20,525 nt of DNA, from the IMG/VR virus record IMGVR_UViG_3300005239_003333; one strand, written 5' to 3'. The stretch's first letter is position 1, and the number at the start of each line of letters is the position of its first letter. The position numbers were made by a program, and so were the translations under genes. Source of the DNA: an uncultured virus (IMG/VR IMGVR_UViG_3300005239_003333). Taxonomy: Duplodnaviria; Heunggongvirae; Uroviricota; Caudoviricetes. Shown one piece after another: positions 4,341 through 20,525 of this stretch. The notes under the pieces were generated by a model, which searched no databases, was not told the origin of the DNA, and saw only the letters and a program-made list of their open reading frames with translations.

Positions 4341-4417
4341 TGGTGGGCCCGGTCGGACTTGAACCGACGACCAAACGATTATGAGTCGTTTGCTCTGACC
4401 AACTGAGCTACAGGCCC
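4341..4417 (-). tRNA. tRNA with CAT anticodon, most likely tRNA-Ile2 (lysidine type)
   Basis: GGGCCTG TAGCTCAGTTGGTCAGAGC A AACGA-CTCATAA-TCGTT ... GGTTCAAGTCC ... CGGGCCC ACCA; body resembles bacterial Ile2 rather than fMet; encoded CCA. Confidence 0.9.
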
Positions 4418-5545: not shown

Positions 5546-6106
5546 TTACATATAATCTGAGATATCATTTACAGCCTCGACATGCCTTTGCTGAGCTATT
5601 TGAATTGCTTTTGCTTCAGCTGAATTACTTTCATATCTTTTCTCAGGCGGCGGACAACAAACATCTTCATAGTTTAAAGTACAAGATGAGAGCGACGTTG
5701 AATTATATTCGGGGCGGTTTAGATCTACAGAACCAATTCCATGATTACGTTCAACGTTTACAGCATAAGCAGTATTATTTCCATTGTTAATATCATTGAT
5801 TAGATATCGCTTACCTGGCCCTAGCCCCATTACTAAATGATCCCAAAATATACCAGCGTCAGTTAATAGCTCTTCGGTAACCTTCCTCATAGATTCTTTA
5901 CGACCTGTGGTTAAGATAATTCGATATCCATGTGTCTCCCATTCCCATAGCTTATCTAGAGTACCTGGTAATACCTCTAAAGCGTTATGACCTTTAGGAA
6001 GATCTTTAAAACCTTCCGTACCATCAGGGAACTTTACTAGAGTACCATCAATGTCGCAGAAAATTGTTTTTGTTGCGTTTTTAGCGTTGTTGTTTAGATC
6101 TTTCAT
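5546..6106 (-). CDS. HAD-superfamily phosphatase (capless, phage-type)
   Basis: motif I FCDIDGT, motif II ILTTGR, downstream LVMG...YLIND. Confidence 0.8.
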   Translation of the reverse strand: MKDLNNNAKNATKTIFCDIDGTLVKFPDGTEGFKDLPKGHNALEVLPGTLDKLWEWETHGYRIILTTGRKESMRKVTEELLTDAGIFWDHLVMGLGPGKRYLINDINNGNNTAYAVNVERNHGIGSVDLNRPEYNSTSLSSCTLNYEDVCCPPPEKRYESNSAEAKAIQIAQQRHVEAVNDISDYM

Positions 6107-6338: not shown

Positions 6339-6469
6339 AAATCCTCCAAATCTTTTACCCATTCATTTACCTCAGTAACTACAATACTAACTAACGCGCA
6401 GATATGTATAAGGTAACACTTGTAAAATTTGACATTACAATATTCATTANNNNNNNNNNNNNNNNNNNN

Positions 6470-9400
6470 ATAGTTACTACTGTACTTGAACTACCTGCAA
6501 ATAGTGAAGTAGGTGGTTTTTTTGGAAATAGAATTGCATCCGGTTTGTCGGCCGGCAGCTATACTGTTAAATTATTAAATCTTGTCACTAGTGTCACCTA
6601 CGAGCAGGTTATAGAAGTTAAAGCATCTACAGGCCGCGTTTTGAGCAATAACTACACGGTAGTAGCTGGGGCCTTAGAAGGAAACATTGAAACAAGTAAT
6701 TTCCCATCAAAAAAGGTAATGGTATACCCGACAACAAGAGATAAAGCATATAAGGCTTTCTACGGAGATGTTGCTGTTATCGAGATTCTCGCGCTTAATA
6801 TGGTAGGCTATGATTATTCATCGTATTTTAACCAACGCGGTGTCGCCGGCGGGGCCACTTCATCTCCGCGAAATAGTTCTTGTTTAGTGCTAGCGAAACT
6901 CTTAGCCGGTGGATCTGGCTACAGGCCAAACGCCTTCTACCCTGTATTTTGGGAAGAGAATAGAACCGCTGGTATAGCTGGCCAGTTCGAGGCCGATGAG
7001 CGACTCCCGAGGAACGCCGGCTTCAGCGGTCCAGACTATAGTATACCGTATGAGCCATTCAGAGGCGTAGGTCGTCGTGCACCTATTCAGCAAATAGTAC
7101 CAGTATTTGTAGCTCTTACTGATAGTAATGGTTCGGTATATGATATTGTAGAGTACGATGAACAAAAGTATGGTTACCGGCTATATAATGACAGGTCTAG
7201 CGGTGCTGGAATGCATTGGTTACACTTTCATAGTACATATACAAGAGATCTGTTTATAGGGTTTAGCTACGGCGGCTATTGGTCTGTGGGTGGCGATCGG
7301 AATTTTTCGTACTCTTCGTCCGGTATTGCCGCTCCATATGCCCCGCAGTACGTTACGTACTTTGACTCCGCTACCGGTTCGCACGTAACAGATAGTGCCT
7401 GGGTCAGTTTAAATATCCGAAATGACGCTGGTCAAATTAGCCCGGTAACAAAAACTTTAATTGATCCTTTTAGTGCCACGGGTGGCGCCGATATAGTAGC
7501 TGTTTTAGCTAATATTGGTAATGAAAATATGAGCCCATTCGATGGAGTAAAGGTGAGTGAATATACCGATGCTCCTATAACATTTCATACTCTTGATCCA
7601 GAGGAAGAATGGTTTCAGCTGCCGAATAATGCTTCATTTGGCGGGTACATTTACCCTTATACGGACACCAGCTGGCGCGCCGGTATTGGAATTTATCCTT
7701 TATCAGCTGATGAAAATGGGCTACCTGTTATTATCAAAAACGGTAAGGGAACTACCCGGGCTACTAGCCGCACGAGTAGCTTGCTTCCAATCGACGGGCT
7801 AACCAATATGTACGACGAGTTCGACAATCCAGTAGTGTACGATGCAGTAGCTAGCTTTACGCCCTACTATCAGAAAGGTATAAATGTAAACTTAGGATAT
7901 GATCGTATTCAAAATGACCCACCAAAAACGGGGTGGCCTATGAATCCGAGTCAGTATGATAGTTCTGGCTCCATGACTATGACGTATTATAAGGCACCAT
8001 ATTCTGGCAGTACATTTGCATGGTTTTTTCCGAACGCAGCGCCGTTGTACGACACTAGTGATATGATTACAAATGCCGATGGATCACTAGTAGCGCCATG
8101 GCGACAAAGCTTAGGTCCTGGTGGGACAGGTGTGGGTTCTCCAGTCTACGGGTTAGTTAACTGGCGCGCGATACATTCGGTTGGCATGGCTACACCCGGA
8201 ACGAGTTTCGGTTATTACAACGAGGGTGCCGCGCTTACATACGATACCGTACCGCTTAGAGTACGGTTTGGTGGAAACTTTTCTAAAAAATCTATTGAAT
8301 TTGTAAATTATACTGGTAATGGAGGACCCTTCGGACAGCCTGCAGGGTTTATACCTAACACCTTAGAGGGTGATTCTGAAGTGGAGCCTGTTACTATGGT
8401 TAATTTTAATGATACGTCAGTAAAAGGGGTGACAGCTATTGCGCAATCTCCTTTAAAGTTATTAAGAGGTTCAGATTTTACTCAAACAGCTAATGCAGCT
8501 AACGGTATAGATACTAAATTAGATTTTACCCCTAATAATTTAGAGAGTGTGTATGGTGAAGATATAGCATTTACTGATGTTAATGAGTATTGCGTTCTAG
8601 AAATAGGAGCTGTTATACCTTACGGTTGTATGGAGGGTATATCATCTAAGTTAAATAAGCATCCAGGGGATCCGCTCAACCCTACGTGTTTATCTGTAGC
8701 CGGTACCGGTGATGCTAATTTTTCACTGTATACATTTTATATAAGATTAAAAGCCAAGGGGACTGGTTACCCTCCTAATTCAAAAATACCAGTTTATATA
8801 AGAAGAGGAAAAGACCATCTTCCATATTATAACCAAGGGTCGTTGCCAGCTAATCCCGGGCCTACTTTAGAGATTGGCCAGGTTAGTAATATTACCGTCG
8901 ACGGTCGTGGTTCAGGCGGGCCGTGTGTCTGTATGATACACACAGACGATGATGGTGTAACAACCCATATTACAGAATATGTCGATCCTAAGAGTAAATG
9001 CAGATCAGAGGGCGCTAGTTCGCTATATCCTAGTAAATCTTTAACCGCCGGTTTAGATCCAAATGTTCAAGATTTTACAGCAGATGTTAATGATGGTGTA
9101 AATTATGATGGTGCCGAAAGTCCTCCTATGACTCACCCTGATGGTAGCGGTCAATGGTATAATGAAAGACCATCACAGTACAGGAGATTAATGAACCTTG
9201 GTGAAGTGAGCGATTCTTTGTATGGCTACGCTAAGGATTATATCGCACCCATTGATTTAGTTGACGACACAGATAGCGGTAAAGTAGGGTGGGGAAATGC
9301 ATTTTCTACTGATATAGGACAGGCTATTACAAAAGCTGCCAACTTCGGGACAATAGCAAGATATAAAAACGCTTCAACTTTTGAAAAAGACCGCCAGTAT

Positions 9401-9727: not shown

Positions 9728-9747
9728 NNNNNNNNNNNNNNNNNNNN

Positions 9748-9873: not shown

Positions 9874-10725
9874 ATGGCAAAACCAGACTTAACTCGTAGC
9901 GGCTTTAGAGGGCCACGATCTCCTAATGACTTAGCTCGTATGAAAGCTAGGATGAAAGACTTTAATAAAGTTGCGAGAGTTGCTCAAGGAGGCAGCGGGT
10001 CTAATGTAACTTATAGTAGTGGAAGTAGTGAGAGTAGTGGAAGCAGTGGAAGTAGCGGTACTCCTTCCCCGGAATATAATGTTGCAACAGCTGGTAATGT
10101 TACTAGTATTAATGAAGGAAGCGCGTTAACAATTAACGTTACAACTACTAATGTATCAGATGCGACTCCGCTTTATTGGACAATTCTTGGTAATACAGGA
10201 GATTTCAGCACAACAAGTGATAGCTTTAATATTAATAGTAATGCAGGCTCGTTTACCGTAACACCAACTGCTGATTCAACTACTGAGGGCACTACTGAAA
10301 CCTTCCAAGTTCAAATCAGAACTGGAAGTACTGGCGGTACTGTAGTAGCTACAACTAATGCAATTACTATCAATGACACGAGCCAAACACCTGCATTTAG
10401 TCCGGACTATACCTTATCAGTTAGTTACGGCGGTACCGGAATATATACAGTAACAGGATCTGATCGGGATGGTTCAGTAAGTGGCAGTAATCCATCTCTT
10501 GCATTTAATGCAGGTGATAAAGTAAGATTTAGTAACTCAGATAGTAGCGCGCATCCATTATATATTAAAACAGTGCAAGAAACAGGTAGCACTTATAACC
10601 TAGCATCAGGAGTTTCCGGAGCAAGTACAGCAACAGTCGATTGGACAATACCAGCTGGTAGCGATACTTATTACTACCAATGCTCAGTGCATAATGCAAT
10701 GTATGGCACAATTACTGTAACATAG
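9874..10725 (+). CDS. virion structural protein with Calx-beta/Ig-like domain and C-terminal cupredoxin-like domain
   Basis: SINEG..LTINVTTTNV...LYWTI module; HPLYI ... YYYQCSVHNAMYGTITV (H, C-x2-H-x2-M). Confidence 0.7.
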   Translation: MAKPDLTRSGFRGPRSPNDLARMKARMKDFNKVARVAQGGSGSNVTYSSGSSESSGSSGSSGTPSPEYNVATAGNVTSINEGSALTINVTTTNVSDATPLYWTILGNTGDFSTTSDSFNINSNAGSFTVTPTADSTTEGTTETFQVQIRTGSTGGTVVATTNAITINDTSQTPAFSPDYTLSVSYGGTGIYTVTGSDRDGSVSGSNPSLAFNAGDKVRFSNSDSSAHPLYIKTVQETGSTYNLASGVSGASTATVDWTIPAGSDTYYYQCSVHNAMYGTITVT

Positions 10726-10727
10726 AT

Positions 10728-11993
10728 ATGACCCAGATACCTACATTATTTGATTTAAACCGGTTACAGGCTAACAACTACACTAGGAAACGTTTTAAAA
10801 TAAAACCGGCTGCATCGTCGCCCGCGCCACCTCCAACAAGAACTATACGTATACTATATGGGCGGTATAACACACCAGAGGCGAAAGTATTTGATGCAAC
10901 TATTCAAAGCGGTACAATGGTCAGGTCGGCCCAAGTAGGGTCTACTATTCAAGGAGCAAATAATCCTTTTGATGGAGGATCAACGTATGCAGTTGATGAT
11001 AAGATGGGGTATTCGGTCAGCCTATCAAAGGATGGAAATATAGCAGCTATTAGCTCGCCGGAAGCGTATGATACAGCTGCCCCGGGTAGTATAGGCGGTG
11101 ATCCACCTACAATGACTGGTAATGTAAAGGTATATGAATATAATGGCACTAGTTGGTCGCAGAAAGGCTCTACGTTATACGCGGGGGAAACTAGCTACGA
11201 AGCCTTCGTAGGCACTAGTGTAGATTTATCAGACGATGGATTAAAATTATTGGTTGAATCTGCAGGATATAATAGTGGCGACGAAGGTTATTCACAATCA
11301 CGATCGTCATATTATGTATATGAATCTGGTGATTGGGTTTTAAAAAGTAGACCTAGTCAAGTTTTCAGATACGGTTACCGAGCTCAAATGTCGAATGATG
11401 GTAATGTAATAGTTGCAACTAACCCAGCCGAAGCCTTTCCTTCTCCTGGGCCTAAAGCATCGATATGGGAGTACGATTCAACAGGTGATTCATGGAGTAA
11501 AAGAGAAGATATTGCTCCTCTCAGCCTTAATGGAGGCGGGGGATTAGATATTAATAATGATGGTTCTATAATCTGTGTATCTCAAGGCTATAATTCAAAT
11601 AATGTAAAGGTATTTAAATGGAACGGATCTTCATATGACTTAATGGGCGCGCAATTCGGATCTCTTCAACATATGAAGTGTAGGATGAATGATGCTGGAG
11701 ATATTGTAGTTGTTTCAGGTACTAACGGTCTTCGCGTCTATAGATGGAATGGTACTACTTGGGTCCAAGATAGTACGACTCTAGGGTCCGGTGATGTAAA
11801 TACAGCTTTTGAGATAAACCCCACAGGTGATATTGTAGTAACCGGTACACCGGCGGTATTCCAATATTATAACGGTGATTGGACTAATACCGGTAGTATA
11901 GATACTGGAGGACAATATCCAATAACTAACAATACCGGATACGCGTATCCATCGTTTGGTGGTCAGTTTACTATAGGACTTAGCGAGATTTAA
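10728..11993 (+). CDS. beta-propeller (FG-GAP-like repeat) protein, putative adhesin/structural
   Basis: repeats GYSVSLSKDGN, GTSVDLSDDG, AQMSNDGN, LDINNDGS, RMNDAGD, EINPTGD with V.VY...G.SW segments. Confidence 0.75.
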   Translation: MTQIPTLFDLNRLQANNYTRKRFKIKPAASSPAPPPTRTIRILYGRYNTPEAKVFDATIQSGTMVRSAQVGSTIQGANNPFDGGSTYAVDDKMGYSVSLSKDGNIAAISSPEAYDTAAPGSIGGDPPTMTGNVKVYEYNGTSWSQKGSTLYAGETSYEAFVGTSVDLSDDGLKLLVESAGYNSGDEGYSQSRSSYYVYESGDWVLKSRPSQVFRYGYRAQMSNDGNVIVATNPAEAFPSPGPKASIWEYDSTGDSWSKREDIAPLSLNGGGGLDINNDGSIICVSQGYNSNNVKVFKWNGSSYDLMGAQFGSLQHMKCRMNDAGDIVVVSGTNGLRVYRWNGTTWVQDSTTLGSGDVNTAFEINPTGDIVVTGTPAVFQYYNGDWTNTGSIDTGGQYPITNNTGYAYPSFGGQFTIGLSEI

Positions 11994-12002
11994 TAATTAA
12001 AA

Positions 12003-12079
12003 TGGTACTCCGAGCAGGACTCGAACCTGCGACCCACGGTTTAGAAAACCGTTGCTCTATCCAACTGAGCTATCGGAGC
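12003..12079 (-). tRNA. tRNA-Arg(TCT)
   Basis: GCTCCGA TAGCTCAGTTGGATAGAGC A ACGGT-TTTCTAA-ACCGT ... GGTTCGAGTCC ... TCGGAGT ACCA. Confidence 0.93.
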
Positions 12080-12087
12080 ATCTGGAT

Positions 12088-12103
12088 ATTATAATATGGT
12101 TCC
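12088..12103 (-). promoter_or_regulatory. early-type promoter motif variant GGAACC-ATAT-TATAAT
   Basis: 8 nt upstream of the tRNA-Arg 5' end. Confidence 0.7.
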
Positions 12104-12107
12104 TATT

Positions 12108-12873
12108 CTAATTACAGAAAAAATGGCACCCAGTTTTTTCGAGAATATCTTCAAGTCCTTTCTCGTCTTGTAGAATAATATCTCCAGTTGGTATATAGTT
12201 AATACCATTATGCTCTTTTACTAAATATATACCTTCATCGTCAATACCAGAACCAATACCTTCGAATGAAATATTATATTTTATCTTTAATATAATCTAC
12301 TTTATTATACTCCTCTTTAAAGTTATCTAACTTAGAACCTCTTAAAAATCCGTTGTATAAGGCACTTACAACTTTTTCTTCTATTTTCTCTATGTCAATA
12401 TGTTCACCGGCCTCTATTTTTAAACTAGTAGCTAACGAATGGTAATTTGACGGGAAAGTTGTTAAACTAGTATTTACATTTAATCCAATACCGACAATAT
12501 AATGCGGTACAGGCAATCCAAGCCCTCTCGAAACCATGCCAGAAATCTTTTTACCGTTACAGTATATGTCATTAGGCCATTTAACTTGGAAGAGTAATTT
12601 AGGAAATATTTTTTGTAATGCATTGCAAACTTCTAAACCATACCAAACAGACGCGCTTTTCATTTCCGCCCATTCAATACCGGGTAAATTTATACATAAA
12701 TGTATATTATCACTGCACGTCGCGTGCCATTTTTTATTAAATCTACCGGATGCAGCGGTCATCTGCTTGGAAATAACTGCAAAAGGTGGTTCAATATTAT
12801 CACTAGCTTGTAAATTTACAGCCTTACTCATTACACTATCCACGACATTAAATCTATATATTGGTATGTCCAT
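12108..12873 (-). CDS. birA: BirA-like biotin-protein ligase family protein (no HTH), probable 1-nt indel near 12278-12281
   Basis: VKWPNDIY, GKKISG, VGIGLNVN, GR..KKW; BPL_C-like tail FEGIGSGIDDEG..LV...TGDI continues in the adjacent frame to stop at 12108. Confidence 0.8.
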
Positions 12874-12880
12874 ATTAAAG

Positions 12881-12888
12881 TATAAATA
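12881..12888 (+). promoter_or_regulatory. T4-like late promoter TATAAATA
   Basis: exact consensus 15 nt before ATG 12904. Confidence 0.6.
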
Positions 12889-12903
12889 TATATATAGTTA
12901 ATC

Positions 12904-13088
12904 ATGTCCGTAAATAAAACAAGTTTAAATTTAAATAATGCATATCTTAAGCAAAACGGAGTGATGCACTCGCCACAACTTATCAAATTAGGTAATAATA
13001 TAGTATGGCCTAGGACGAAAGTTGTAGAATTTAAAACATTACAATCAGGCGGCGAGTTAAATTTTACCGTCGGCGCTACAACAAAATA
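12904..13088 (+). CDS. 5' fragment of a tail-associated protein (runs into gap)
   Basis: N-terminal NAY...IKLGNNIVWP motif shared with the 13432 protein (NAY...MMLGPSLVWP). Confidence 0.65.
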
Positions 13089-13108
13089 NNNNNNNNNNNN
13101 NNNNNNNN

Positions 13109-13435
13109 ATTTTAGAGTACTGGTCTAGATTTAATGATGATGAAAAACCTATTGTAATTACATTAGAGCGGGACTTAGACAAAGTTAAAGAAAGTTATAA
13201 GCGCCGGTTTAAACGACAGCATCCTATGTCAATTGATGACTCGATCAGTGAATCTATGGCTGATGTCGCATTTGAAAAGCATTACAAACATCACTTAAGT
13301 GTGTTGGAGCAAATAAAACCAGATTTTACCCTTTCAGTTGATGCTGATGATAAGCAAGCCAGATTAGATGAACTCGCGACCACTCTCGGCGTATCATTAT
13401 CTACCGACTGGGCGCCTATCAACAGCACGTCATGA
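13109..13435 (+). CDS. C-terminal fragment of a sulfotransferase-like (P-loop) protein
   Basis: frame is open from the gap: ILEYWSRF...PIVITLERDLDKVKESYKRRF (Ixx xRD-x5-S, 3'-PB-like) ... LDELATTLGV. Confidence 0.5.
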   Translation: MLEYWSRFNDDEKPIVITLERDLDKVKESYKRRFKRQHPMSIDDSISESMADVAFEKHYKHHLSVLEQIKPDFTLSVDADDKQARLDELATTLGVSLSTDWAPINSTS

Positions 13436-16400
13436 TATCTAATGTAACATTACAAAACGCCTATAAGGGCGCTAACGGGATTACCCGTATGATGTTAGGA
13501 CCATCTCTAGTCTGGCCAAAAGCTCCGACTTTAATGTTTGATATCACAAACGCTCTTTTACCTTTTGATATAAGTATCGACGCTCCTGCGCAATTTTTAA
13601 TATTTCAAGAAGTTGGCGGAGCCGCTTATTTGTTTAATGCGGGGAGAAGCACTTCTAATAAAACGCTCAGTACAGAAGCTCGTGGTACTGAAAGGCCATA
13701 TAAAATGGTACATACACAGGTTGATCCTAAGGTTTCATATAATATACCTATACAAGCTAAGTTCGTTGGTTCTCTATCTGTTCAAATAATAGCAAGGTCC
13801 TCCAGAGTCTCTAGAGCAAATCGATACACATCATATACAGATCGAAATAATGGATCTATATCAGCTTATATTAAGAATGATTATAATATTAGTATTTCTT
13901 TTCGTATTGAAGTGCGTAATGCCTCGGGTACTATAGTAGCTAACACAGTACAAAATGTTTCTCCAGGCGAACATGACATAGGTAATTCTACATATATTTC
14001 AAGCGGTCGCACTATAAAAACTGCTTTACCGGCTGGTCGTTATAATATTAAGGTATATAATCTTACAACTGGTATAATCAATGAGACTACTGTCGAATGC
14101 CAATCTGTTACACGTGGCTGGAAAGTAAACCGTTATACATTATTATCAGGCGCTTTAGATGGTCTCGAGAATCTTACTACAACCGGTGCTTTTTCAAGGA
14201 GAGTATTAGTATACCCGTCAACAAGAAATAAAGCATATAAGGCTTTTTACGGCGATGTTGCTGTTGTCGAGGTTCTTGCGTATAATATAAAGGGATATGA
14301 CTATAAAGCTTTTCAAAACTTTCTTGGAAACAGCGTCTTACAAACCGCCAGTACCGGGGAAGGTGCTTGTATTCTGCTTGCAAAATTAATAGATGGCGGT
14401 TCTGGGTACAGAGCAAACGCTTTCTACCCTATATTTTGGGAAGAGCCTCCTTCAGGTAACTCATTTGAAGCAACCGGTGAAATGGTTCCGTTTTTTGTAG
14501 CTCTTACTGATAGTAATGGATCGGTATATGATATTGTAGAGTATGATGAACGGAAGTATGGTTACCGAGAATATAATGATAGAACTAGCGGTGCAGGTAT
14601 GCATTGGTTACACTTTCATAGTACATACTACCAGGTAGGTGGTTACTATTCTGTTTGGTTAGAAAGCTGGGCACCACAATACGTTACATACCTCGACCCC
14701 GCTACCGGGCCACATTTAACAGATTCTGCATGGGTCGCTAAAAATATTCGAGCTGACGCCGGTCAAATGAATGATTCAACCGGGACATTAATCGATCCTT
14801 TTTCTGCAGATGGTGGTGCAGATATAGTAGCTATTTTTGGTAATATTTCAAGCCAGCAATACGGCTATACATCCTATGTCCCGTGGAATCCATTTAACAC
14901 CAGCACAGCTGAATATATTGACGCGCCGCGGACACTACATACTTTAGACCCAGAGGAGGCTTGGTTTGACCTTCCAACTCATAATATAAGTAATAATATT
15001 GTACTCGATGAGAATGGGTTACCAATTATTGTAAGATCTCTTAACTCCAGTAATGGTGATTTTGATAACGAGAGGTTTAACTATGGTAATAAAGCTGGTA
15101 GAGGCACGTATATAGGCACAAACTATACTATTATCGACCCCCCAACGGTTGGATATAGTAGTGGATCAGGCTATTGGTATTACCCGAATGGCGGCCCATA
15201 CTACGATACAAGTGATCTTGTAAATGGTATAGCCCCATGGCGTCAAAGCTTAGGTGCTGACGGCACTGATGTTGGTTCACCGGTTTATAAAAAATATAAT
15301 ATTGGAGCGAGAAACGCGGTGATGGGTCTATTTGCTCGTCCCGGCTGGGATTATAGCGAACCAACACTTAGACAGCAGACCGGAGGAAATTTCTCTAAAA
15401 AATCTATTGAATTTGTAAATTACACCGGCAATGGTGCACCGGCTGTACAGCCCGGCGGGTTCATATCGAATACTTTAGACGGTGACCCGGATGTAACACC
15501 CACTACGAAGATTAATTTTAAAGATACGTTAATAAGCGGAATAACAGCTACAGCGCAACCTTCCTTAAACATAATTGGAGGTGCAGATTTTACTCAAACA
15601 GTTAACGCAGATAAGGAGACGATAGATAGTAAGATAGAAATTATACCTAATAATTTGGATAGCGTGTATGATGAAGATATGGCATTTACCGATATTAACG
15701 AATATTGCGTTCTAGAAATAGGAGCTGCTATACCGGCGTTTGTATGACCGGTATAGGTAATCAACTAAGGTTGCACCCTGGCTCAAGTTCGACGTGTTTG
15801 TCTGTCGCAACTTCAACTAATTTTTCACTGTATACATTTTATATAAGATTAAAAGCCAAGGGGACTGGTTACCCTCCTAACTCAAAAATACCAGTTTATA
15901 TAAGAAGAGGGGCAGCTTGGGTTCAAGGATATAATACAAGCTTATTACCATCTAATCCCGGTCCTACTTTAGAGATTGGACAGGTTGATAACATTACTGT
16001 TAATGGTCGTGGTTCAGGAGGGCCGTGCGTATGCATAATACATACAGACGTTAATGGTATTACAACGCATATTACAGAATATGTCGACCCGGCAAGTAAG
16101 TGTAGAACTGAAGAGCTGCTGGATGGGGATTGGAATAAACCATCAAATCGCGACTATCAAACATATACTTTTAGAGCAGATGTTAATGATGGTGCGAATT
16201 ATGATGGTTCACAAAGTCCTCCTATGACTCACCCTAATGGTAGTGGTGAATGGTATAATGAAAGACCTTCACAATATAGAAGATTAATGAATTTAGGTGA
16301 AGTGAGTAATTCTATATATGGCTATGCTAAGGATTATATCGCACCTATTGATTTAGTGGATCAAACGGATGCTGGTAAAGCTAAATGGACTGGATCGGCT

Positions 16401-17250: not shown

Positions 17251-17593
17251 NNNNNNNNNNNNNNNNNNNNNNNNNNNNNNNNNNNNNNNNNNNNNNNNNN
17301 NNNNNNNNNNNNNNNNNNNNNNNNNNNNNNNNNNNNNNNNNNNNNNNNNNNNNNNNNNNNNNNNNNNNNNNNNNNNNNNNNNNNNNNNNNNNNNNNNNNN
17401 NNNNNNNNNNNNNNNNNNNNNNNNNNNNNNNNNNNNNNNNNNNNNNNNNNNNNNNNNNNNNNNNNNNNNNNNNNNNNNNNTAAAACACGAAGTAGACGCC
17501 ATATGCTACATTAAACGGTGCGACCGCGATAGTTGTATAATTAACGCGAATATAATTTTCTTTTAGATTTTCTTTCATTTTTGTATGTTTAGT

Positions 17594-18690: not shown

Positions 18691-19692
18691 TTACTGATTT
18701 ACTAAAGAGAGAAGTTTTGTACCTCGCTCAATTGTTCGTTCTGCAAGCTCTCCGTTATTAACAACAGTCCAGAAGCTTTGCTTATTCATACGACCTAACC
18801 CGAATTCTGACGAGACGTATTGGTTAAGACGGTTCTTACCCTTACCACGAGTACTATTATGTGAGTAGTAGTCAGTTACTGCAGAGAACGCATCTGCGTA
18901 GTTCTCTCCTCGGTTACCAGCACCTCGCTTAAACAATGTATTCAAGCTATCTACCGTATTTAAACAGCGTGTACTAAGTCCTTCCTTAGGGTTATTACGC
19001 ATCAAGAATCCAGTAAACAATGACTGGGCTTTCTTTTCAGTAATTCGTTTCTTGAGAAGCTTATCAAACTTCTGACGGAAATCTTCCTGAGTACCGAGAA
19101 AGTCCTCTACTACATTAGATAGATCAGCAAGTTTAAGCTCGATATCACCGCGGTGAACTGCACTACCTACCATTGCTGATTTATTATTTAAATTATATGT
19201 AAACGTATTATCGCAGACAGTACATACATTCGTATTATTGATCCAGAGCTTAGATGTCTGATCATGAGCATTACCGAAGTTAAGATAGTCCTCAAACTCC
19301 CGATCACCAACTTTATACTTACTCTTACCATCTAGGCTTACAGTAACAAAAACTTTACCTCTTCCGCAGACCGAACCAACAGATTCAATTTTAGCTTTAG
19401 GTAGTCTTTGCATTGCATCACTAACTAAGTCCAAAAACTTCTCGTTAGTAATTTCCTTATACGAAGGAGACATTGGTTTACCGATAATCTTATCATCGTC
19501 AGTACCTACTAGGATACCATAACCTGTCTCTTGTTCATTACCATCTACATCGACGTATGTAAGCGGCTTACGCTCTACGTCCCATTTAGTCAAGACGTTA
19601 TCACTAACGTCGATTTTATCAACGACATCGGTTAAACCGTGCCATGCTTGGCTCAAACCTACTTGAGCATCGTTTTCTTTTATGTTATGCAT
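18691..19692 (-). CDS. DUF932 (TIGR03299-like) phage/plasmid protein
   Basis: AWHGL...WDV...Y..ITNE.F...GSV.G...VF...NAHD...VCDNT...AFSAVTDYYSH pattern. Confidence 0.8.
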   Translation of the reverse strand: MHNIKENDAQVGLSQAWHGLTDVVDKIDVSDNVLTKWDVERKPLTYVDVDGNEQETGYGILVGTDDDKIIGKPMSPSYKEITNEKFLDLVSDAMQRLPKAKIESVGSVCGRGKVFVTVSLDGKSKYKVGDREFEDYLNFGNAHDQTSKLWINNTNVCTVCDNTFTYNLNNKSAMVGSAVHRGDIELKLADLSNVVEDFLGTQEDFRQKFDKLLKKRITEKKAQSLFTGFLMRNNPKEGLSTRCLNTVDSLNTLFKRGAGNRGENYADAFSAVTDYYSHNSTRGKGKNRLNQYVSSEFGLGRMNKQSFWTVVNNGELAERTIERGTKLLSLVNQ

Positions 19693-19821: not shown

Positions 19822-20525
19822 TTAGCTAGCTACTTTTAAGAATAATTTCATACTATCAGCTGCATTAAGCAGACCGTTTACGTTACCTCCGTTATCGAGA
19901 TTTTTATGCTTGTAAATAGCACTCTTACCTTTACCGAACTTATCTATCTTACCGTTAAGTACTAACTCTCTAAGCAAGTTATAAGCGCGGTTATATTCTA
20001 CACCCAGCTCAGTCATTACTCTATCAGCAGTAAGATGAGGAGGCTCAGTAATATTCAATATCGCCTCTAGATCTTTAGCCTTACGACCCTTCTTACTAGG
20101 AGCTTTATTTTCACTCTCTTCTACTTTTACAGGAGCTGAAAAGTCATAACCTTTAGCACCGATGAACAAAGTTAACTCATTAAGAGCGCCGAAACGATTC
20201 TTAGTAAAAAAGATCTTACGAGCATCATCATCAATATCACCATCGATTACAATATTCATATTAACATCGACAGTATGAGGTACAATAGTACCACCCTTAA
20301 GCTTACCGTCTTTAGTAAGATGCATAATAAAGAATACAGTACACTCTTTATCTTTAGCAGCTCTAGTAAGCTTACTTACAGCATACTTTTCTAGAGCTCT
20401 ACTATTCATCTTCTTCTTAGAAGTTAGAGCCTGAAAGCTATCTATCACAAGAGCATCAAGATCGTCCATTGCATCCGCTAGGTCATCATATCAGTCATAT
20501 TAGCGACTGCTACCTCTTAACCCCA
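19822..20525 (-). CDS. RadA/Sms-like RecA-family ATPase (C-terminal part; continues beyond window) with winged-helix tail
   Basis: Walker B LVIDSFQ, HLTKDG..KG...HTVDV, KNRFG signature. Confidence 0.8.

Follow-up and report, generated by a model that had tools for sequence, protein, structure and literature searches.

We analysed a stretch of 20,525 nucleotides (the window) from an uncultured virus of the Caudoviricetes, IMG/VR record IMGVR_UViG_3300005239_003333. The window has 39% G+C and is part of a 187,955-base contig. Between positions 12,108 and 12,873 its minus strand carries a gene related to BirA and other biotin protein ligases (BPLs), in which residues for adenylation are kept and several residues around the biotin head group are replaced. 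A sequence-only reading of the same DNA had described it as a phage BirA-like ligase with a remodelled biotin pocket. The features of the gene are as follows (aa, amino acids).

12274..12873, minus strand: 5' part of the gene, BPL catalytic domain, 199 aa; premature TAA at 12274-12276 in the window version
12108..12296, minus strand: 3' part of the gene in the +1 frame, 62 codons, SH3-like BPL_C domain and clade-specific tail; stop at 12108-12110
12267..12279, no strand: frame-break site; two homopolymer bases are missing from the window, a G behind 12267 and a T behind 12278
12829..12837, minus strand: Ser-Val-Met (aa 13-15) where the canonical motif is Ser-Thr-Asn; Val stands for the ureido-contact Thr
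12727..12762, minus strand: equivalent of the biotin-binding loop, MTAASGRFNKKW (aa 38-49); Met for Gln, Ala-Ser for Gly-Arg, Lys for Arg; Gly-Arg and Trp kept
12700..12702, minus strand: His58, invariant in the clade; most cellular BPLs have Tyr here, and His occurs in none of the 186 others
12538..12582, minus strand: KWPND (12568-12582) and GKKISG (12538-12555), with catalytic Lys109; coordinates checked by script; invariant in the clade and in cellular BPLs
12472..12492, minus strand: GIGLNVN (Gly-x-Gly-x-Asn), aligned with the adenine/biotin-tunnel segment of S. aureus BPL
12111..12170, minus strand: clade-specific C-terminal extension of 20 aa, ending Thr-Gly-Cys-His-Phe-Phe-Cys-Asn

Translation and a coordinate script placed the adenylation motifs (KWPND, GKKISG, GIGLNVN and the loop Arg and Trp) where the sequence-only reading had put them. 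The same was true of Ser-Val-Met and of the loop, and a HMMER alignment to S. aureus BPL agreed: M38 falls on the loop Gln, A41/S42 on the first Gly-Arg, G43-R44 on the second, K47 on Arg and W49 on Trp. The 199-aa piece scored above the cut-off of 21 against Pfam PF03099 (BPL_LplA_LipB; 38.9 bits, E 9.7e-10), and related loci of the clade described below reached 47-53 bits. The +1-frame piece matched PF02237, the BPL C-terminal family (21.7 bits, E 1.9e-4, cut-off 21). Against TIGR00121 (birA_ligase) the 199-aa piece scored 76.3 bits (E 2.6e-21; NCBI cut-off 83.1), and the LplA-B_cat profile (PF21948) was not matched (16.4 bits against a cut-off of 27). Twenty-nine distinct PDB sequences matched the 199-aa piece at E <= 0.01, with S. 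aureus BPL 3rir at the top (E 6e-15); 28 of these were biotin protein ligases or BirA, and the exception was the biotin/lipoate protein ligase-like 6jhu (E 1.5e-4). By these family matches the gene encodes a predicted class I enzyme, with no helix-turn-helix (HTH) domain, that is derived from biotin protein ligase.

To assess the reading frame, contigs of four public marine runs (X1-X4) were aligned to window positions 11900-13080. X3 does not reach the break site. The three runs that cover it, from three studies, all contained an extra G behind 12267 and an extra T behind 12278. Both window gaps are homopolymer lengths, and the stretch in which the two frames overlap is A/T-rich. Adding both bases gave a single open reading frame (ORF) of 255 aa, whose junction lines up with that of intact relatives. 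The X1 contig otherwise equals the window, with 0 other letters differing over 318 bases; it possibly comes from the window's own sample and is hence non-independent, while X2 and X4 provide independent support. Because the two extra bases in other assemblies restore the 255-aa frame, the frameshift in the window is attributed to an assembly fault or a rare allele and not to decay. Programmed frameshifting was considered and dropped: the other assemblies simply contain both extra bases. A frame break in the large neighbouring gene, which would have pointed to a poor assembly, was also considered and rejected, as 12904-13086 and 13429-14562 are two paralogues with a common N-terminal module.

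The sequence-only reading had allowed for a decaying pseudogene, in which the frameshift is real and the odd residues come from relaxed selection. The +1 frame break and the premature stop in the window would fit this explanation, which we nevertheless regard as very improbable: the missing bases are present in all three covering runs, including one contig otherwise identical to the window, and the conserved domain and tail can still be read from the frame after the break. All motifs were also found in 19/19 full-length relatives retrieved, and the ratio of non-synonymous to synonymous substitution rates (dN/dS) was 0.30, with dS 0.48, in one close pair (L002 vs L003), so the relatives are intact and under purifying selection. 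Within the gene, the X2 and X4 strain contigs differed from the window by 18 single bases, 6 synonymous and 12 non-synonymous (10 codons). These differences spare all motif residues, and five cluster in a variable loop at aa 117-120.

A marine phage clade and its ligand pocket

A word-indexed search returned 48 proteins at E <= 1e-5 (197 candidates). Four of them were intact relatives of 254-269 aa, 73, 52, 46 and 44% identical to the window's protein; identity of the next match falls to 32%. A profile of the four relatives, run against 1.84 billion representatives, matched 31,587 proteins at E <= 1e-3. Among the 150 profile matches listed, seven were members of the same clade (P0001, P0004, P0005, P0049, P0050 and the fragments P0051 and P0055), and below them the listing turned to ordinary class II BirA-like proteins. 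Scanning of DNA added 3 clade loci among 4 relatives on viral contigs, and 2 in the best 80 of 556 relatives on metagenome contigs, one of the latter being the contig of L001. Look-ups of clade clusters supplied further members, and 19/19 full-length clade sequences retrieved (254-269 aa) contained a Met-Thr...Gly-Arg-Phe loop, a Gly-Cys-x-Phe tail and a KWPND-type motif.

No clade member was seen in the best 80 of 476 relatives from 185,579 species genomes, where the top match had 37% identity (partial; E 1e-24). None was present in 50,697 GenBank phage records, of which 12 gave weak matches with best-segment identities of 23-36%, and no PHROG family matched the ligase. In a maximum-likelihood tree of 74 rows, all 11 clade rows formed one branch with a Shimodaira-Hasegawa-like approximate likelihood ratio (SH-aLRT) of 99. 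The stem of the clade measured 0.29, and its end branches were similar to those of cellular BPLs. The clade has diverged to 43-47% identity. It is small and monophyletic and comes only from uncultured marine phage or metagenome contigs. L001 lies among T4-like baseplate and clamp-loader genes, and L002 and L003 among lambda-like tail-tip genes; the gene is therefore present in at least two phage types. The substitutions thus do define a phage clade, the question raised by the sequence-only reading, and ordinary bacterial BirA proteins with the same changes were not found in the genome matches above. Its remark that a BirA homologue is unusual in a phage also agrees with the phage-record and PHROG searches.

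Conservation was compared between 10 clade rows and 63 cellular rows and, separately, between 8 clade proteins and 184-186 other BPLs. The loop Gly-Arg, Trp, KWPND, the catalytic Lys and GxGxN showed conservation of 90% or more in the 10 clade rows and of 85% or more in the 63 cellular rows. In the second comparison the same residues were invariant in 8/8 clade proteins; among the 186 other BPLs the counts were 186 for Lys, 186 for the KWPND Asp, 184 for Asn, 185 for the loop Gly, 177 for Arg and 164 for Trp. We take the catalytic Lys of the clade to be the equivalent of E. coli K183. The positions that changed were the following.

Thr of Ser-Thr-Asn: other BPLs, T 180 and S 4 of 184; clade, V 7 and S 1 of 8
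Loop Gln: other BPLs, Q 181 and M 5 of 186; clade, M 8/8
First loop Gly: other BPLs, G 185 and Cys 1 of 186; clade, A 5, P 1 and G 2 of 8
Arg after the first loop Gly: other BPLs, R or K in 170/186; clade, S, R, Q or E
Tyr on the next strand: other BPLs, H 0/186; clade, H 8/8

Val at the Thr position was thus seen in 0/184 other BPLs, and Ala or Pro at the first loop Gly in 0/186. P0004, L002 and L003 also exchange Ser for Gly. Clade members differ in the head-group-contacting half of the loop and agree in the phosphate-contacting half. Three apparent cellular BPLs with Val for Thr were misalignments, in which the canonical Ser-Thr stood one or two residues further on.

In E. coli BirA, S89, T90, Q112 and R116 hydrogen-bond the ureido ring, with G115-R118 as the biotin loop. 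For S. aureus BPL, published work describes Ser, Thr, Gln and Arg as contacts of the biotin ureido ring, and assigns the motifs kept in the clade to phosphate, to adenine and to the hydrophobic tunnel that takes the valerate chain (PMC5039522). The same paper reports no use of the tested modified biotin analogues by BPLs. Numbering of Gln, Gly and Arg in that source is one lower than PDB chain numbering, and motif positions were used instead.

By their chemistry, Thr-to-Val and Gln-to-Met are nearly isosteric, and would keep the shape of the pocket while removing acceptors to which the two ureido NH groups could hydrogen-bond; replacement of Gly by Ala or Pro would bulk up the loop that closes over the head group. 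Of the lost polar contacts proposed in the sequence-only reading, the Thr-to-Val part stood, being specific to the clade. The Gln-to-Met part weighs little alone, as Met also occurs in five of 186 otherwise canonical BPLs (P0063, P0073, P0101, P0104 and P0168) and at genome locus L115. A literature search gave no useful mutational data on the Thr position.

An AlphaFold2 model of P0002, the relative 73% identical to the window, had a predicted local distance difference test score (pLDDT) of 92.2 and a predicted TM-score of 0.90. The Foldseek matches in the PDB listed for this model were all biotin protein ligases (best 6ndl, E 1.5e-19, TM 0.78), with neither LplA nor LipB among them, and a search of the ESM Atlas gave BPL clusters only. 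The protein is thus modelled as a catalytic domain and an SH3-like C-terminal domain with the BPL fold. About 20 residues follow the point where cellular BPLs end; this tail was present in all clade members and absent from cellular BPLs. Leu, Leu, Gly, Cys and Phe were invariant in the tail of the 10 clade rows, and sub-lineages differed in its end, which read Gly-Cys-His-Phe-Phe-Cys in that of the window and Gly-Cys-Asn-Phe-Tyr in a second one. In the model the tail contains a helix predicted with confidence (236-248), followed by a short strand; the final seven residues have a pLDDT of 61. Matched structures from the PDB and ESM Atlas reach only to about residue 236-241.

The nine full-length clade members scored 57.3, 71.8, 85.3, 92.3, 105.8, 107.2, 113.5, 120.4 and 123.2 bits on TIGR00121, the window's sub-lineage (P0002-P0004) being lowest. 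Their nearest cellular relatives, the class II proteins P0052 and P0053, scored 166 and 175 bits and, unlike the clade, have canonical Ser-Thr-Asn and Gln...Gly-Lys-Gly-Arg. Class II BirA proteins (E. coli 1bia/2ewn, S. aureus 3rir/6ndl) gave the top sequence and fold matches to the clade, which differs from them in having no HTH repressor domain. Class I BPLs (P. horikoshii 1wnl and 2dxu, Aquifex aeolicus 3efs, M. tuberculosis 3rux) have the same two domains without an N-terminal HTH, matched at Foldseek E 7e-18 to 4e-16 (TM 0.75-0.78 by query) and have the catalytic Lys, KWPND, GxGxN, loop Gly-Arg and Trp in common with the clade. In contrast to these enzymes, the clade has Val and Met for Thr and Gln, mostly Ala or Pro for the first loop Gly, His for Tyr and the 20-aa tail, and its gene is phage-borne and linked to a 2-oxoglutarate (2OG)-Fe(II) oxygenase.

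LplA, LipB, LipM and LplJ belong to the same PF03099 superfamily. LplA/LipB-type enzymes adenylate or transfer a non-polar C8 or valerate acyl group onto a lysine of a biotinyl-fold domain. No specific sequence kinship links LplA or LipB to the clade, which in the tree clearly derives from within BirA.

The linked 2OG-Fe(II) oxygenase

A gene for a prolyl-hydroxylase-like 2OG-Fe(II) oxygenase (225-232 aa, PF13640) was found at four of the ligase loci.

L001:7230-7928, within 2 kb of the ligase
L002:9316-9999, abutting the ligase (oxygenase stop at 9999, ligase match from 10001)
L003:9316-9999, abutting the ligase in the same way
L005:1148-1825, within 2 kb of the ligase

Identity among the four copies is 47-73%, similar to that among the ligases. 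HxD...H and Arg-Arg (HxD...H...RR) are invariant, as are Cys-Pro-His-Thr-Asp and Glu-Trp-Trp-x-Tyr-Asp-Ser, and dN/dS between L002 and L003 was 0.10. When viral contigs were searched from the oxygenase side, four full-length orthologues were recovered. Three were on ligase contigs, and the contig of the fourth ends 230 bases after the gene. The protein database held 15 oxygenase clusters. Contigs of the same size paired ligase and oxygenase clusters at 5601 (P0004 and P0204) and at 8044 and 9242 (the P0003 and P0205 clusters), which suggests two further linked pairs; no such pairing with the oxygenase was found for P0002, the closest relative. Across the ligase loci no third gene was conserved.

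The oxygenase model (pLDDT 78.5, poor at residues 49-88) resembled protein prolyl hydroxylases and PiuC/YbiX-type enzymes, with PHD2 4bqy as its best structural match (E 1.6e-6, TM 0.42). The oxygenase forms a distinct family, with no sequence match in the PDB, nor by tblastn in the 50,697 phage records. Complex prediction for the L002 ligase and its neighbouring oxygenase scored 0.01 against a mark of 0.32, which gives no verdict either way. The pairing is frequent and not universal, or the window's partner lies elsewhere in the genome.

In logic only, a lysine-acylating, adenylate-forming ligase working with a hydroxylase recalls EpmA and EpmC on elongation factor P. EpmA is a ligase of the superfold of class II aminoacyl-tRNA synthetases and BPLs. 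Neither EpmA nor EpmC has a sequence relation to the clade, and EpmC is not an oxygenase of this 2OG type.

Candidate substrate and alternatives

The combination of intact adenylation residues and altered head-group contacts suggests, at about even odds (a probability of roughly 0.5), an active BirA-derived ligase with a re-specified head-group pocket, the substrate of which would be a non-biotin, or at least a non-canonical, carboxylate. Such an enzyme would make an acyl-adenylate from ATP and hand the acyl group to a lysine. Its ureido-binding sub-pocket would have become non-polar and partly filled through Thr-to-Val, Gln-to-Met, loop Gly-to-Ala/Pro, in some members Ser-to-Gly, and the new invariant His, and it would have gained the C-terminal helix and Gly-Cys-x-Phe tail. 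The predicted substrate is a carboxylate with a valerate-like chain and a less polar head, similar to lipoate or to a fatty acid, or else a biotin derivative with no NH donors, and a protein of the host or of the phage may receive the acyl group. Lipoate and octanoate suggest themselves because they share the valerate/C8 chain of biotin, lack the ureido ring and are loaded onto domains of the same fold as biotin carboxyl carrier protein (BCCP). In most lineages the ligase appears to have been inherited with the 2OG oxygenase, and the two may act jointly.

A bolder proposal, which we put forward as doubtful, is a phage two-gene module: the ligase, with its depolarised pocket and its Cys-bearing tail, would together with the oxygenase install a non-biotin acyl group (lipoyl- or octanoyl-like or otherwise hydrophobic, and possibly hydroxylated) on a host or virion lysine. 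A thioester of the acyl group on the invariant tail Cys is conceivable, as is a role of this Cys in gating the pocket.

Several observations weigh against a re-specified ligase. It is residue chemistry alone that would point to a change of substrate, including the different, more hydrophobic carboxylate proposed in the sequence-only reading. Thr-to-Val is isosteric and does not affect the backbone NH, and a compensating hydrogen bond could come from the new His; E. coli BirA reportedly accepts a ketone isostere of biotin. The Gln-to-Met change is shared with the canonical BPLs named above. Seven of nine clade proteins lie above the TIGR00121 equivalog-domain cut-off of 83.1, and the sister group of the clade is the canonical class II pair P0052/P0053 (SH-aLRT 91). 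Constraint is moderate outside the motifs and active site, as 12 of the 18 strain differences change an amino acid. No Biotin_lipoyl (PF00364) acceptor domain was found among 41 ORF translations of the window, nor in three viral records that are fragments about 15% complete; the control matched 14/14 genomes. The 2OG partner was not found among the ORFs of the 20.5-kb window with a profile of the four orthologues (best E 1.6).

Some of these observations would be expected of an ordinary auxiliary biotin ligase, which would biotinylate host BCCP and sustain fatty-acid synthesis in infection, with the substitutions as tolerated drift or affinity tuning. The BPL fold and two-domain architecture, the retention of all catalytic and adenylate-binding residues, the TIGR00121 scores, the canonical sister group and the Met-for-Gln enzymes are all consistent with this. 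Though the main rival, it seems to us somewhat unlikely, given that Val for Thr and His for Tyr do not occur in the other BPLs compared and that the first loop Gly is kept in 185/186 of them, while P0004, L002 and L003 have lost the Ser as well. The changes are fixed across a clade diverged to 43-47% identity and are therefore selected, not drift; and an enzyme that scavenges a scarce vitamin would hardly be expected to lose hydrogen bonds to it. It is quite improbable that the protein is a non-catalytic binder with the BPL fold, acting as a regulator or as a decoy that blocks an apo-biotinyl or apo-lipoyl domain or another host protein. The altered head-group pocket would fit such a role, as would the absence of an acceptor gene among those found nearby and a new tail whose invariant Cys and aromatic residues could plug the pocket or bind a partner; yet a binder would not need the catalytic Lys, the KWPND Asp, GxGxN, the loop Gly-Arg and Trp, all invariant in the clade.

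The fold and chemistry of the enzyme are known; the pocket, tail, carrier and gene partner have not been described before. No paper on a phage-encoded BPL or on this clade was found in a full-text literature search that covered few of the subscription journals; 'BirA' in PMC7029224 and PMC12185513 proved to be the name of an author in their reference lists. The BPL ligand pocket is among the most uniform known, with Thr, Gln and the first loop Gly 97-99% conserved in the 184-186 other BPLs, and a natural clade under purifying selection that keeps the adenylation chemistry and rewrites exactly those positions is an experiment on specificity in the BPL fold. The same fold underlies BioID, TurboID and labelling tools that use biotin analogues. 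Should the re-specified ligase use a new substrate, these phages bear a so far unknown protein modification, possibly coupled to a hydroxylase, that acts while they infect abundant marine bacteria. Should biotin still be used, the clade shows that a BPL can do without the 'essential' ureido contacts, a point of interest for the design of BPL inhibitors. Were the two-gene module to be real, it would represent a new protein modification together with a second, independent evolution of a hydrophobic-acid ligase in the BPL fold. The cellular Met-for-Gln BPLs, including the one at L115, offer natural controls on the importance of the Gln contact.

Neighbouring genes

The other features recorded in the window, with the counterparts of the tail-fibre-like genes at two clade loci, are listed below.

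12003-12079, minus strand: tRNA-Arg(TCT), directly downstream of the ligase gene
4341-4417, minus strand: tRNA-Met(CAT)
12904-13086 and 13429-14562, plus strand: large tail-fibre-like genes
L001:4958-7021 and L001:8217-9884, minus strand: large tail-fibre-like genes
L005:1833-3749, minus strand: large tail-fibre-like gene
18691-19692, minus strand: DUF932 protein; tblastn against 50,697 phage records gave no match
19822-20469, minus strand: 215-aa ORF, the tail end of a DnaB/primase-helicase-type AAA domain plus a TrmB-like HTH
6450-6469, 9728-9747, 13089-13108 and 17251-17480: N runs of 20, 20, 20 and 230 bases, which interrupt large ORFs

From their sequence, the surroundings of the ligase gene look phage-like. 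A tail-fibre-like gene begins 30 bp upstream of the ligase on the opposite strand, and a tail-fibre connector domain in the window matched 198 records, 195 of which were Synechococcus, Prochlorococcus or other cyanophage entries. Besides the two tRNAs, the window also encodes a PNK-like HAD protein, the DUF932 protein and the helicase fragment. When the ligase region was compared with phage records by blastn, the tRNA-Arg stretch alone matched (1162 records, mostly at 80-90% identity). A promoter and terminator scan found promoter-like sites no more often than chance (4 seen vs 5.9 expected).

The tail-fibre-like genes begin with a common N-terminal module of about 60 aa and then diverge, and the window and L001 each have two tandem paralogues. 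The N run at 13089 cuts the shorter of the window's two copies. A tail-fibre-like gene divergent from the ligase is an arrangement conserved in the window, L001 and L005. In the window, the 30-bp gap between these two genes contains position 12891, where X2 and X4, and not X1, have an extra A.

Further genes of note lie around the oxygenase-ligase pair at L003 (7382-8425 and 8648-9319) and L002 (16199-16633). In the phages with lambda-like tails, the pair is preceded by genes for a BspA-type leucine-rich-repeat protein and a sulfotransferase-like protein, and a cytidylyltransferase-like gene lies further on. It is possible that this cluster beside the tail-tip genes consists of surface- or protein-modifying accessory genes.

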